From IMG/VR virus record IMGVR_UViG_3300027804_000039, positions 64,001 to 128,000 of that record: a stretch of 64,000 nt of DNA. One strand, given 5' to 3'. Position 1 is the first letter of the stretch, and the number at the start of each line of letters is the position of its first letter. Shown piece after piece: positions 1-8,355 of the stretch. The DNA comes from a virus. Both the position numbers and the translations under genes were made by a program. The notes beneath the pieces were generated by a model. The model saw nothing but the letters and a program-made list of their open reading frames with translations, did not search any database and was not told the DNA's origin.

Positions 1-1220
1 AACATCTCTACTACTTCTTTAGAGCAGTATCCAGCAAACTGTTTCTTGATTGCTTGTTTCTGTAAGAACTCACTTACAAACTTAACACCGTAAGTATGCA
101 AAGCGACAAGAACAAGACCAGCCGTGCTTGCCGTCGCGTCTCCCAAGATTCTGAATTCACTGAAACCATAGCGACTAGCAACAACACAGGCAATGACCCC
201 AGTAATAGTTGTAATAATACCGACATAGGTCCACCTCGACATTCCAATAATAATCAAACCTAATACTAATAATGTTAGTATTTCCGCTCCATCGGCCCAA
301 TCAGGACGTTGAATTACTACTCCGTTAACCATAGTACCAATGACTGCTGCTTGTACTTCGTGTGGCCATACTGCACCTTTGGCAGTTGGCAGTGGATTGC
401 TAATACCCGCAGCACTTGGTCCTACGATGACAATAGCACCTTCTAAATCTTTTGGTAATTGTGTTAAACTGAAACTGCGTGACTGCTGACTCCAGTCAAT
501 CCAAATACGTCCTAAGTTGTCTGTTGTAACTGGACCAAATTTAGGTATACGCATCTTTTCTACACCACCTTCAAACAGTTTAACTTGGAAGGTAGAATCG
601 CCTGCTGCAACTCTGAGTGTCTCCATAGCTATGCTAGGATAAAGTTTACCGTCAACTCCTACAATCAACGGTAAACGGCGATTCACACCGTCCACCTCTG
701 GGAGTGTGTTTGTTATTCCAATGCCTGCAGCATTGTTTTCTAATATTGGAACGTTTGCTATAAGTCCAGGATACTGTACAATTTGATCCATGAACTCTGG
801 ATTAAGAACTGCCGATCCTGGAACACGTGGATCATTCTTTGTCTTTTGTGCAGGTGTGCTTGATAAAACTACAGGAAACTCTTTTAGAGCTTGACCCAGC
901 GCACGGTCTCCACCTGTACGGTCTGGTTCTGGCATGAGTACATTAAGTACAACAAGTCCTGCTCCCCTCTGATATAAATCTCGTACAATTTTGGCATATT
1001 CTGCTCTTGGTAGCGGCCACTGTCCATGTTTGTTTAAACTATCTTCATCAATATTTACAGTTACAATGTTATTAAATGTAGGTTCTTTGGCAGTAATTAA
1101 TGTGTCAAAATAACGTAGCCTAACACTTTCAACGAATGTAGGATCTGCAACACGTATGCCCACTACTAATGCTAAAGTCAGTAGAGCAGTCCAAGGGCTG
1201 AGTAATATTTTTTTCATCAT
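1..1220 (-). CDS. CHASE2-domain membrane sensor, probable class III adenylate/guanylate cyclase (C-terminal part runs off the left edge)
   Basis: Manual translation from ATG 1220: MMKKILLSPWTALLTLALVV...RLRYFD...IVTVNIDEDSLNKHGQWPLPRAEYA...EVDGVNRRLPL...HEVQA..., then three TM helices and KQAIKKQFAGYCSKEVVE. The periplasmic motifs are CHASE2 signatures and the last segment is the usual linker into a cyclase domain. Not in the ORF track; the catalytic domain is outside the window. Confidence 0.8.
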   Translation of the reverse strand, partial: MMKKILLSPWTALLTLALVVGIRVADPTFVESVRLRYFDTLITAKEPTFNNIVTVNIDEDSLNKHGQWPLPRAEYAKIVRDLYQRGAGLVVLNVLMPEPDRTGGDRALGQALKEFPVVLSSTPAQKTKNDPRVPGSAVLNPEFMDQIVQYPGLIANVPILENNAAGIGITNTLPEVDGVNRRLPLIVGVDGKLYPSIAMETLRVAAGDSTFQVKLFEGGVEKMRIPKFGPVTTDNLGRIWIDWSQQSRSFSLTQLPKDLEGAIVIVGPSAAGISNPLPTAKGAVWPHEVQAAVIGTMVNGVVIQRPDWADGAEILTLLVLGLIIIGMSRWTYVGIITTITGVIACVVASRYGFSEFRILGDATASTAGLVLVALHTYGVKFVSEFLQKQAIKKQFAGYCSKEVVEM

Positions 1221-1221
1221 A

Positions 1222-1227
1222 TATTTA
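1222..1227 (-). promoter_or_regulatory. T4-late-type promoter box TAAATA directly before the CHASE2 gene
   Basis: Minus strand CGATAAATATATG; no Shine-Dalgarno (SD) between the box and the start codons. Confidence 0.55.
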
Positions 1228-1231
1228 TCGT

Positions 1232-1258
1232 AAAAATAGCCCGCCAAAGCGGGCTATT
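1232..1258 (-). terminator. Rho-independent terminator after the autotransporter gene
   Basis: AATAGCCCGC-TTTG-GCGGGCTATT followed by a T run on the minus strand. Confidence 0.8.
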
Positions 1259-1273
1259 ATATACGTAGTTTAC

Positions 1274-5938: not shown

Positions 5939-6551
5939 TTTTAGCAAACGCTCCACTCTGTGTTAATGTTACCGCGTTGGCAACTGTGCTAGTTCCACTT
6001 CCTGAAACTGTTATATCTCCTGAATGTAAACCTACTCCTGATGCTGTGTGCGTTACGTTATTATAGTTGCCGTTAATAGCGATCTTACTTTGTATAACAC
6101 CGCCGCTCAATGTTTGTACAGTATTGTTGTTGTTGCCAGTGATTTCAGATCTGATTATACTAGCATTACAAGTCGAAGCCAACGCTGTTCCGCAACCAAT
6201 AGTTTGATTGTTGTTACTGCCGTCTGCTGAAACAACAACAGTTGATCCAGTTCCGTTAGTTTCATTGTTAATAATCATACTTAGGGTATTACTAGCACCA
6301 ATTTGGCTTATAGTTACATTATTAAGATCACCCCTAACTATTGCCGCATCATCTGCATTGCCGTTGCCGCCTACGTTGCCGTTGACCAAATTACCTGCGC
6401 CCGTCTGTGTAATAGAGACTGACGAGTTGTCACCAATTTGATCTATATAAACGTCGTTAGCAAATGCGCCCGATGACAGCATTCCAGCCGCCATAAGAAT
6501 TGTAAGTAATTTTCTCGACAACTTACCACCGCCTGTGATTCTTTTTTTCAT
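5880..6551 (-). CDS. Curlin-like repeat protein (CsgA/CsgB-type amyloid subunit)
   Basis: Signal peptide ending AFA, then repeats with Q-x-G-x-x-N / G-x-x-N-N spacing (DQIGDNS, TQTGAGN, SQIGASN, DGSNNN, NGNYNN, NGSNNN). Lies directly downstream of csgG. Confidence 0.7.
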   Translation of the reverse strand: MKKRITGGGKLSRKLLTILMAAGMLSSGAFANDVYIDQIGDNSSVSITQTGAGNLVNGNVGGNGNADDAAIVRGDLNNVTISQIGASNTLSMIINNETNGTGSTVVVSADGSNNNQTIGCGTALASTCNASIIRSEITGNNNNTVQTLSGGVIQSKIAINGNYNNVTHTASGVGLHSGDITVSGSGTSTVANAVTLTQSGAFAKNAVITSNGSNNNVIVTQSD

Positions 6552-6635
6552 TTTATTCGCTCCGGATGCAAGTTTAAGTTTGTTAATGCATCCAATTTTT
6601 AAGTTTAATAAAAGACTTCTCCTATGCTTAACTCA

Positions 6636-7877
6636 TTAAGGTTTGTGTTCTGAAAGCATGTCAGACTTCACATACCCTTTACGCTTCTCTGCGTCTACTA
6701 CATAATGCCATCCCTCTGGTCCTGGGGAAATGATATTAAGTTCAGTTCCTTTTTTCAACAACCATGTACGTTGACTTTTTTCATTTGATTCTTTATAAAC
6801 ATATGAATCTTGTTTAAGGTATCTTGGTACCCATAACTTTACAGGCTCGCTAACAGTAGTATCAGAAATTTTAGATTCAACTGAGTGTTCTGCTACAACC
6901 GCAATATGTTCTGGTTGTATAGGAACTATCCTTGATTGAGGTTGCGTTTTTTCGGACTGCTCTTTTTTGCTTGTTCCATTGCCTTCTCTGTTGCTGGGCT
7001 GGACCGTGACGGACTGCTCGGGCTCAGGGGCTCTTTGGGGTGTTTGTGAGGTTTGTGATTGAACCAACTCATCTTTCTTCTCCTCTTTAATAGCAGGTTT
7101 AGGAGTCTTATATCTCCATAGACCTTTTTTCTCACCTTCGACTATCATATCGTGTACTGCTTGTTCTATGGCTACACGTACTGCGTAAGTTGTAGGCTCG
7201 TTTAAAGCCATACCGTTTTCTAATTCTAAACTCTTTGTGCCAGCGTCCACAAAACGAAGTACACCCACGTTATGTTGTGTGCTATAGATTGTTTTAGATA
7301 CAGCATTAGTGATCAATACTTCGCCACTGTTGACACTAACCAGTCGCATAGATATAACTATCTCATCCACTCTGTATTGTTGACTTCCGCCAATACCTAA
7401 AAATCTAGCTCCATTGCCTCCGCTACGTATATTACTATCGTATCCAATAATACCACCTTCTATCATTATGCCTGCTACTGTCATAGGCTTAAGAGGTTTA
7501 GCATCTTTACCTTCGTATACTTCGCGTTGATTTCGAATTAACTGTCTTTCTTTTACGAGGTTATCTAATCCTACACGTTCCACTACTTTAAACCAATTTT
7601 TACTATCTTGTAAACTTTTAATTAAAAATACTTCAGCACCTTGGGTAACTGCTTTTGAAAATACTGCTAATTTGTCGTTAGGTTTCATTTGTCCGGTTTT
7701 GTCCATAAAACCGTAAACTGCAATGGTCATAGGTGGGCCATCTAACTCTGGAAGTTTTTCAATAAGACTTTCTCTTGTCTTTAAAGATACAGGCTCTTCT
7801 TTGGCGGCGTCCATGTGTATAGTAGCACAACCCGACAATGACCCTGCAACTAATATTGATAATAATAGTTTTTTCAT
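6636..7877 (-). CDS. csgG: Curli secretion channel lipoprotein CsgG/HfaB family, with C-terminal SH3b-like extension
   Basis: Lipobox LSGC; IAVYGFMDKTGQMKP, WFKVVERVGLDNLVKERQLIR, EGGIIGYDSN, YRVDEIVISMRLVSV are CsgG motifs. The C-terminal ~60 aa (LKKGTELNII..GWHYV...KGYVKSDML) resemble SH3b. Confidence 0.9.
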   Translation of the reverse strand: MKKLLLSILVAGSLSGCATIHMDAAKEEPVSLKTRESLIEKLPELDGPPMTIAVYGFMDKTGQMKPNDKLAVFSKAVTQGAEVFLIKSLQDSKNWFKVVERVGLDNLVKERQLIRNQREVYEGKDAKPLKPMTVAGIMIEGGIIGYDSNIRSGGNGARFLGIGGSQQYRVDEIVISMRLVSVNSGEVLITNAVSKTIYSTQHNVGVLRFVDAGTKSLELENGMALNEPTTYAVRVAIEQAVHDMIVEGEKKGLWRYKTPKPAIKEEKKDELVQSQTSQTPQRAPEPEQSVTVQPSNREGNGTSKKEQSEKTQPQSRIVPIQPEHIAVVAEHSVESKISDTTVSEPVKLWVPRYLKQDSYVYKESNEKSQRTWLLKKGTELNIISPGPEGWHYVVDAEKRKGYVKSDMLSEHKP

Positions 7878-8323
7878 TAGAATGCAAAGCTCGCTATCGG
7901 TACAACAATCTCTGTTCTACTACCATTTGCTTCAATGATAGTTAGGGTAACGTCTGTACCTGTTTTTACCCAACTAATATTAGTGCCTTGAAAATTCATA
8001 GTTCCACTATCTCCGCCGCCTTCAGAAAACATCTGGTCAGCTAACTGTTTAGATAATTGTGCGTAGATACGTGCCTCTACGTTAACTAAGAATTTGCTTA
8101 GATTTGTGCTTTTTGCAGCTGCTTCTGCTTTAGCTATAGCCGCGGCTTCTTCCGCCTTAATTTCTTTCTTTTTATTTTCTTCTAGTTGATAGATACTAAG
8201 AACATGCTGGCTGAATCCATTGCCTGGTATGAAGGCTGGACTTTGAAAATTGTGTACTAGTTCTGTTTTACCTGTGTTGGCAACAAAAACTAGTGGAATA
8301 AGCACTAATAATTTTTTTACCAT
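7877..8323 (-). CDS. csgF: Curli assembly protein CsgF
   Basis: Signal peptide then ELVHNFQSPAFIPGNG (matches the CsgF N-terminal F-x-x-P-x-F-x-G-N pattern); abuts csgG. Confidence 0.75.
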   Translation of the reverse strand: MVKKLLVLIPLVFVANTGKTELVHNFQSPAFIPGNGFSQHVLSIYQLEENKKKEIKAEEAAAIAKAEAAAKSTNLSKFLVNVEARIYAQLSKQLADQMFSEGGGDSGTMNFQGTNISWVKTGTDVTLTIIEANGSRTEIVVPIASFAF

Positions 8324-8349
8324 GATTCGCTCCCGGTATCCGGTATTAC

Positions 8350-8355
8350 TATTTA
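8350..8355 (-). promoter_or_regulatory. T4-late-type promoter box upstream of csgF
   Basis: Minus strand GTAAATAG, 27 nt before the csgF ATG. Confidence 0.55.

Follow-up and report, generated by a model that had tools for sequence, protein, structure and literature searches.

Curli genes are already known from aquatic phages. A curli cluster was described in pelagimyophages, and freshwater fonsimyophages were found without the operon (Zaragoza-Solas et al., 2020; PMC7029224). For phage Melnitz, CsgGF was discussed as a possible lysis pore (Buchholz et al., 2022; PMC9004378). A region with CsgF, CsgG, CsgA/B, FecR, a second CsgA/B and an adenylate cyclase was reported from pelagiphage myoviruses and podoviruses, together with its global distribution and transcripts, and aggregation, defence against superinfection and import were proposed as functions (Wittmers et al., 2022; PMC9599517). 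None of these three papers mentions CHASE2, autotransporters or promoters. Here, we describe a block of this kind in a 64,000-nucleotide stretch of virus DNA (the window), which corresponds to bases 64001–128000 of the 191-kb IMG/VR record IMGVR_UViG_3300027804_000039 (CheckV completeness about 50%). The listing of open reading frames (ORFs) places six co-oriented, minus-strand genes between positions 1 and 8323. In order of transcription they encode CsgF, CsgG, a curlin-repeat protein, a FecR-domain protein, an autotransporter and a CHASE2 membrane protein with a class III cyclase domain.

Judged by its gene content and order, this block is a freshwater, T4-like giant-phage version of the published viral curli-FecR-adenylate cyclase region. 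An earlier note on this DNA, made from the sequence alone, had named all six genes, and its assignments were supported by Pfam matches and by comparisons with PDB structures and folds; we regard the identity of the parts as close to certain. The same note knew of no functional account of the full six-gene module in a phage, but the module is not undescribed, as shown by the CsgF-CsgG-CsgA/B-FecR-second CsgA/B-adenylate cyclase order in PMC9599517. What is new here is the freshwater T4-like giant phage, the slot that holds the autotransporter, a CsgG with an SH3b domain and the tagged leaders; the module itself was already published. The best overall explanation of the locus appears to be a freshwater viral curli module that combines a surface fibre or adhesin with a relay from the envelope to cyclic AMP (cAMP), and we give this explanation an even chance of being correct. 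That a surface fibre or adhesin is made seems to us reasonably probable. Signalling from FecR through CHASE2 to cAMP is a more tentative proposal, with a chance somewhat short of even.

To place the block among its relatives, we scanned viral contigs with CsgG and obtained 68 IMG/VR loci. When each part was searched by tblastn, CsgF, CsgG, curlin, FecR and the CHASE2-cyclase were found in this order in almost all loci with enough flanking DNA. CsgG and the cyclase were also matched by tblastn in Methylophilales phage Melnitz and Pelagibacter phage HTVC008M, and the GenBank annotation of both cultured phages gives the same six-gene order (Melnitz gp99–104, HTVC008M gp014–019). The synteny in related phages expected in the earlier note is thus present. 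The viral type VIII secretion module of Melnitz and HTVC008M and the block described here share the order CsgF-CsgG-curlin-FecR-variable gene-CHASE2-cyclase, the lack of CsgE, and a TAAATA directly before the cyclase start; protein identities between the present module and that of Melnitz are 33–58%. By contrast, the present lineage is a freshwater one with related records of 278–364 kb, not a 140-kb marine pelagimyophage. Its fifth gene is an autotransporter unrelated to the second curlin of the pelagiphages, its CsgG carries an SH3b domain, and its leaders carry a ribosome-binding site (RBS) tag matched by phage hairpin RNAs. Myoviruses frequently have a second gene with curlin repeats at the position between FecR and cyclase; here, that place is taken by the autotransporter. 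The histidine kinase gene found upstream in the podovirus form of the module is absent as well; instead, a 526-amino-acid (aa) ORF is followed by bilin reductase and heme oxygenase genes.

The larger related records were reached through the module loci, and one of them is rated complete. Because these relatives encode a T4-type gp23 (E about 1e-99), we take the lineage to be that of a T4-like phage. Where results are given below for five records (G000–G004), these are the present record and four large relatives, the complete one included.

Every one of the six products has a signal peptide or transmembrane (TM) helices, as read from the translations and as had been noted before. The first gene, csgF (7877–8323; all features of the block are on the minus strand), encodes 148 aa with a signal peptide and an N-terminal FQSPAFIPGNGF motif. 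It matches PF10614 with 57 bits against a cut-off of 25.8 (E 3e-15), and a phmmer comparison with CsgF in the PDB found nothing. Most of about 50 CsgF homologues retain the core of the motif, and variation is seen in the most distant sequences. The second gene, csgG (6636–7877), encodes a 413-aa lipoprotein channel (PF03783, E 2.7e-53) whose lipoprotein signal ends in the lipobox LSGC and which matches the solved E. coli CsgG in the PDB with E 6e-48. The channel occupies residues 1–260, and a linker of low complexity connects it to a C-terminal SH3b-fold domain at about residues 350–413 (window 6639–6830); CsgG length in the window's subclade is 368–415 aa. The model of the C-terminal part has a predicted local distance difference test score (pLDDT) of 77, rising to about 88 over the domain itself (the C-terminal 65 residues). 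Its best fold matches are the SH3b domains of the phiSM101 endolysin (root mean square deviation 1.9 Å) and of BT_1314, with a deviation of 1.4 Å for NlpC/P60 enzymes. Since the C-terminus of CsgG is periplasmic in the established structure, the modelled domain probably tethers the pore to peptidoglycan.

Compared with E. coli, the F56 ring of the CsgG constriction is kept, and N55 and Y51 are replaced by V and N. This altered constriction would suit a lysis-timing pore, that is, a gated secretin-like or pinholin-like channel of CsgG and CsgF that depolarises or permeabilises the envelope while the rest of the cluster regulates it. Such a pore was proposed for Melnitz from structure models and synteny (PMC9004378), and a gene for a PbpG/PBP7-like D-Ala-D-Ala endopeptidase lies directly after the cyclase gene, outside the window (L002:10307–11026, minus strand), with the same position in five relatives (L017, L020, L021, L023 and L072). 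However, the Melnitz proposal assumed that there are no fibre subunits, whereas a secreted curlin-repeat protein is encoded here and in essentially every locus. In addition, the N-terminal motif of CsgF and the F56 ring of CsgG are retained, an outer-membrane pore is unable to depolarise the inner membrane, and the adhesin slot would be left unexplained. We consider it very unlikely that the block is a device for timing lysis. The endopeptidase may serve to remodel the cell wall, either in support of the envelope module or in preparation for lysis.

The fibre that we favor would be built from the product of the third gene (5880–6551), a secreted CsgA/B-like subunit of 223 aa with a signal peptide and curlin repeats (PF07012, 27 bits against a cut-off of 20.7). 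Among 19 homologues the QxGxxN repeats and two cysteines are invariant, and the mean column identity of the alignment is 49%. As a comparison, the csgBAC-csgDEFG curli system of E. coli and Salmonella has in common with the phage block the CsgG lipoprotein channel, the CsgF family and a secreted subunit with QxGxxN repeats. The phage differs in having no CsgE, a single subunit gene with two invariant cysteines and partly changed constriction residues, and in adding the cyclase, FecR and autotransporter genes.

The fourth gene (ORF 4835–5956) encodes the FecR-domain protein (PF04773, E 5e-11). Its signal peptide begins at M7, which is also the start in database gene calls, and from there (4835–5938) the protein is 367 aa long. 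The signal peptide is followed by a FecR domain with two invariant cysteines, an acidic linker of LDxN repeats and a small C-terminal beta domain. The mean column identity of the FecR alignment is 65%, and on the sequences compared this protein appears to be the best conserved non-pore part. In a Foldseek search, its low-confidence model matched the CCSSD of PupR and the BDI_1681 periplasmic domains (probability 1.0, E 3e-3). The C-terminal domain resembled 5ix9, a "cell surface anchoring domain" (TMt 0.73), which is a lead only, given the poor model. We also considered the tail of the protein (Q..Q.VN.G...Q) as a curlin repeat and rejected this, as the hhalign match was not significant (E 0.032, probability 1.6%).

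The fifth gene (1274–4768) encodes 1164 aa. Naming it an autotransporter was right because the last 308 aa, scanned alone, match the PF03797 beta-domain (E 3e-23), and its architecture reads as that of a classical type Va autotransporter. From the N-terminus, it has a signal peptide (MKKTLIATLVAMTLGATTAHA), an unassigned N-domain, an F5/8 type C (discoidin) domain (PF00754, E 2e-10), a repeat region of about 450 residues (Gly/Thr/Asn repeats, GT/N-rich by composition), and the beta-barrel; the C-terminus (...TKGF) ends in Phe. What did not hold was the idea that this gene is a fixed sixth part of the module. It occupies a variable slot (0–7 kb, 0–4 genes), in which an autotransporter, not a second curlin, is the usual content, and the distance from FecR to the cyclase in related loci goes from −12 nt to 7 kb. 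The large slot proteins are one linked family, in which 13 of 15 have an autotransporter beta-domain and 5 of 15 an F5/8 type C domain in the passenger. In 14 loci the slot contains a DNA/RNA non-specific endonuclease with a signal peptide (PF01223, E down to 4e-52). This nuclease marks a sub-lineage of the loci, L050–L065 (for example, L050:13386–14099 and L059:15997–16896). The remaining slots encode small proteins that are secreted or are lipoproteins, or have taken up genes for cytoplasmic proteins (for example, a metallophosphoesterase and a GT4 glycosyltransferase), and some are empty. In HTVC008M, the slot protein has PA14 plus curlin repeats, and neither it nor the corresponding Melnitz protein is similar to the autotransporter of the window.

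In a tree of FecR proteins, the IMG/VR rows form one clade (100/100) separate from Melnitz and HTVC008M. Inside the tight 13-row FecR clade of the window, the content of the slot varies from row to row despite nearly identical FecR proteins. The block therefore combines five parts that are fixed with a single cassette that evolves fast and is mostly surface-exposed. A slot that can hold varied autotransporters, a secreted nuclease or nothing, next to five parts that are fixed, points to a surface-interaction function under diversifying pressure.

Rapid turnover of a surface-exposed slot is typical of conflict genes, and the exported PF01223 nuclease of the 14 related loci could degrade incoming DNA in the periplasm. 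Both would fit superinfection sensing or exclusion, one of the options in PMC9599517, in which the surface layer and the periplasmic parts block or detect rival phages and cAMP tunes the infection programme. But the nuclease is absent from the present window, and lectin-type passengers suit adhesion better than masking. No known exclusion protein families were detected (PADLOC was not scanned). We think it unlikely, although worth keeping in mind, that rival phages are what the block deals with, and we continue to favor a fibre or adhesin.

The sixth gene crosses the edge of the window. Positions 1–1220 (ORF 3–1247 in the window) encode its N-terminal part, which matches CHASE2 (PF05226, E 1.6e-41). 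We completed the gene by fetching the DNA upstream of the window (genome 63178–65220; L002:11178–13220; about 680 aa), and the cyclase domain that had been predicted in the earlier note was present. The extended ORF of 689 aa has CHASE2 at residues 24–332 (PF05226, E 6e-41) and a Guanylate_cyc domain (PF00211, E 1.3e-14). As read from the sequence, CHASE2 has one TM helix on its N-terminal side and a TM bundle on the other, where three further hydrophobic helices lead up to the cyclase domain. The best solved matches are bacterial adenylate cyclases (E 5e-20). When aligned to solved cyclases, both metal Asp residues are present (FSDLRGFT and KYVGD), as are the Lys in KYVGD and the Asp in YDILGD, and the catalytic Arg is kept. 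Lys plus Asp is the adenine-specifying pair of class III cyclases, with residue roles known from Rv1625c and CyaB.

Genome-wide, no hexamer was more enriched than TAAATA within 65 nt upstream of ORFs (39 of 251 against 5.9 expected, 6.7-fold); the octamers TATAAATA and TGTAAATA were unenriched in the window. The earlier note had placed one TAAATA box of the T4-late type before the block. This hexamer enrichment and the conserved position of the box before csgF support its being a promoter, but the notion of a single box was wrong, as there are three, before csgF, the autotransporter gene and the cyclase gene. The first box (8350–8355) is 32 nt before the csgF start, with TAATTC about 17 nt further upstream; its position is conserved in relatives, with the layout TAATTC-N17-TAAATAnTAATA. 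It is followed by the csgF leader (8324–8349), which has a CCGG-ATA-CCGG hairpin and then an extended RBS tag, ACCGGGAGCGAATC. The second box (4799–4804) is 36 nt before the autotransporter gene and, together with its tagged leader ACCGGGAGCGAAATCGG, covers 4769–4804. In relatives, the autotransporter genes of the slot are preceded by a box and a tagged leader in the same layout. Between the genes for the autotransporter and the cyclase lies an intrinsic terminator (1231–1255; AGCCCGC-TTTG-GCGGGCT, then ATTTTTA), which was missed by the consensus promoter/terminator scan and was read directly by eye; similar hairpins are found in L015, L017 and L020. The third box (1222–1227) abuts the ATGATG with which the cyclase gene starts. 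A box at −10 to −13 before the cyclase ATG recurs in 15 of 40 unique loci, Melnitz and HTVC008M among them. Because the box abuts the start codon, the sequence suggests that the cyclase mRNA is leaderless.

The spacer between csgG and the curlin gene (6552–6635) has a conserved hairpin (GGATGCA...TGCATCC), which is immediately followed by the tag GGAGCGAAT and then the start of the curlin gene. The stem is kept by paired substitutions in relatives (GGACGCA/TGCGTCC and GGGTGCA/TGCACCT), and the hairpin may set curlin-to-pore stoichiometry or mRNA stability. The tag GGAGCGA in the leaders of csgF, curlin and the autotransporter otherwise marks a plus-strand array of early genes at 130–138 kb. 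The early operon ends with two anti-RBS hairpins (genome 139,920–140,000, plus strand; 75,920–76,000 in window numbering, outside the window), the loops of which complement the tag. Exact complementarity to the loops extends over 14 nt in the csgF leader and over 12 nt in that of the autotransporter gene (4769–4790), as against 7–9 nt for any early gene; by this comparison, the csgF and autotransporter leaders appear to be the genome's longest complements to the loops. In G000, G001, G003 and G004, the extended motif YYGGGAGCGAA occurs almost solely in module leaders and hairpin elements, with the lone exception of one other tagged gene leader in G003. This correspondence between the two kinds of site recurs in G001, G003 and G004. 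The flank is altered at both sites in G003, and there 17 nt are common to the csgF leader and the hairpin element. From these complementarities, it is probable that a phage RNA controls translation of the module.

Other genes have leaders of these kinds. About a dozen genes genome-wide have TAAATA just 10–12 nt before the start (for example, window 33498–33510, 34409–34420 and 63704–63715). This spacing suggests that late mRNAs without leaders form a class in the lineage, with the cyclase message as one of its members. About 3 kb past the cyclase gene, a small gene for 93 aa (L002:8193–8474, plus strand; genome 60193–60474) has a leader of the type TAAATA-N-CGGGGGCGAATC, as does csgF, and may belong to the same regulon.

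For the proposed relay, the sole experimental precedent is rhizobial NsrA acting on CyaK. In S. meliloti, the outer-membrane beta-barrel NsrA feeds the CHASE2 cyclases CyaK and CyaD1/D2 (PMC7529298, PMC13001267). The likeness is that activation of inner-membrane CHASE2 cyclases by an external protein signal requires an outer-membrane barrel and that a periplasmic FecR-domain protein, SMc02177, is encoded beside cyaD1. The S. meliloti system differs in being cellular, in having a known receptor (Clr) and in having no curli parts. FecA-FecR-FecI signalling shares the FecR-type periplasmic fold. However, the phage FecR protein has a cleavable-type signal peptide only, with neither a cytoplasmic anti-sigma domain nor a TM helix, and searches of the five records with Sigma70_r2, for an extracytoplasmic function (ECF) sigma factor, and TonB_dep_Rec, for a TonB-dependent transducer, gave no matches. 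The system is therefore not of the Fec type. The exported FecR-fold protein, with its two invariant cysteines, acidic linker and small beta domain, is a natural candidate to couple the outer-membrane apparatus to CHASE2. A relay of an outside signal through FecR to cAMP or cyclic GMP, like any role in lysis timing, is something that we infer.

Several observations weigh against a fibre or adhesin coupled to cAMP signalling. In the cyclase, Ser takes the place of the transition-state Asn (VSTAARLE as compared to VNLASRLE in CyaB), and because of this the activity or product of the enzyme is uncertain. No cyclic nucleotide (cNMP)-binding protein or receptor is encoded in the present record or in the four large relatives. 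In S. meliloti, SMc02177 is a target of cAMP/Clr and is dispensable for signal perception (PMC5498481), so that of the rhizobial precedent cited in the earlier note the feeding of CHASE2 cyclases by the NsrA barrel stood and the part given to a FecR-domain protein did not. Melnitz cultures showed no clumping (PMC9004378). Pfam passes a single curlin repeat on its own, and the model of the FecR protein is poor (pLDDT 55.7). CsgE (PF10627) is absent from G000–G004, with a positive E. coli control. The G002 lineage has the module without the RBS tag and without the extended complement. Lastly, psbA, hli and cpeT were not found in the present record, nor was psbA in the four large relatives.

The first two of these points raise the possibility that the Asn-to-Ser change has left a weak enzyme, one with another nucleotide as substrate, or a scaffold, and that the output is not cAMP. 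The cyclase has YDILGDMVSTAARLE where solved bacterial cyclases have N, and two co-varying forms occur among 40 unique phage homologues, D...S in 28 and T...N in 12. By contrast, five of six catalytic positions are intact, including the adenine-specifying Lys and Asp, and the Ser is itself conserved among homologues, which argues for selection on the active site. We rate an output other than cAMP as rather unlikely. The missing CsgE bears on another alternative, offered in PMC7029224 and PMC9599517, in which a CsgG pore without its CsgE gate lets solutes such as cofactors or iron complexes into the periplasm, their presence being reported by FecR. This import channel would have to work without a Fec-type system, since a signal peptide replaces the anti-sigma/TM part of FecR and the five records encode no ECF sigma factor or TonB-dependent receptor, and it leaves curlin, CsgF and the autotransporter unexplained. 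We find an import function highly improbable.

The explanation that we favor, a fibre or adhesin with a relay to cAMP, would work as follows. The module would be transcribed from the three TAAATA promoters, which are of the T4-late type, and translation of csgF and the autotransporter gene would probably be gated by the phage RNA with hairpin loops complementary to their leaders. After Sec export, an outer-membrane pore of CsgG9 and CsgF would secrete the curlin-like subunit, which would polymerise on the surface of the infected cell, and the autotransporter would insert by means of the host BAM machinery and display its sugar-binding domain. With fibre and adhesin on the surface, the sticking partners of the infected cell would change, be they sibling cells, particles or other phages. 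The FecR-fold protein would couple this outer-membrane apparatus to the periplasmic CHASE2 domain, so that the state of the envelope or its contacts sets cAMP synthesis. Because the phage encodes no receptor, a host receptor of the CRP type would read the cAMP.

A bolder version can be drawn from the same parts, namely an outside-in sensor timed by phage RNA. The loops of the early operon would gate csgF and the autotransporter, contact made by the fibre or the lectin adhesin would be relayed by FecR to CHASE2, the resulting cAMP would reprogramme the host (lysis timing, metabolism), and the slot would be a ligand-specificity cassette. The trigger might then be contact with cells, particles or lysis debris, by analogy to the sensing of a released ribosomal protein by NsrA-CyaK. 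We think that there is only a small chance that this is how the block works.

Upstream of csgF, the 526-aa ORF (window 8393–9973) had no Pfam, PHROG or NCBIfam matches and has homologues among the related loci in L017 (55%) and L005/L006 (23%) only. A heme oxygenase gene and a PcyA-like bilin reductase gene (NF002760, E 2e-23, far under the cut-off) adjoin the module at window 9918–11142. PcyX/HemO pairs occur in non-cyanobacterial phages, and the pair here is reminiscent of them. A phage DnaK/Hsp70 of 641 aa is encoded at window 11986–13911; its gene is preceded by an exact TATAAATA box, and the protein is about 64–66% identical to DnaK sequences in the phage collection. The window also contains nrdAB. 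The nrdA gene is nearest to those of Xanthomonas and Ralstonia phages, and one structural protein is 65% identical to that of cyanophage S-RIM32. The idea of a cyanophage, which came from the adjoining heme oxygenase and bilin reductase genes and the S-RIM32 match, is unsupported given the missing psbA, hli and cpeT and the affinity of nrdA.

With regard to habitat, over half of the words sampled from window 1–8400 were present in 20 freshwater or aquatic metagenome runs from six studies, one of which is possibly the source; no RNA data set was among those listed. Megablast of the same 8400 positions against cultured phages gave no matches. The FecR-domain protein has more than 7000 metagenome homologues, and a large protein search with it returned, among the top 120 listed, near-identical metagenome proteins only. 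Cellular contigs scanned with FecR gave matches in four short contigs of metagenome-assembled genomes, which are uninformative on cellular origin.

Among the accessory modules of several genes that aquatic phages carry, the viral curli-FecR-cyclase block is one of the most widespread. It is not restricted to marine phages of SAR11 and OM43 but is common in a T4-like freshwater lineage with records of up to 364 kb. The three promoters, the promoter abutting the cyclase start that is common to Melnitz and HTVC008M, and the anti-RBS complementarity provide testable handles on how the module is used. If envelope cAMP signalling is confirmed, the block would be a phage-encoded trans-envelope second-messenger system.

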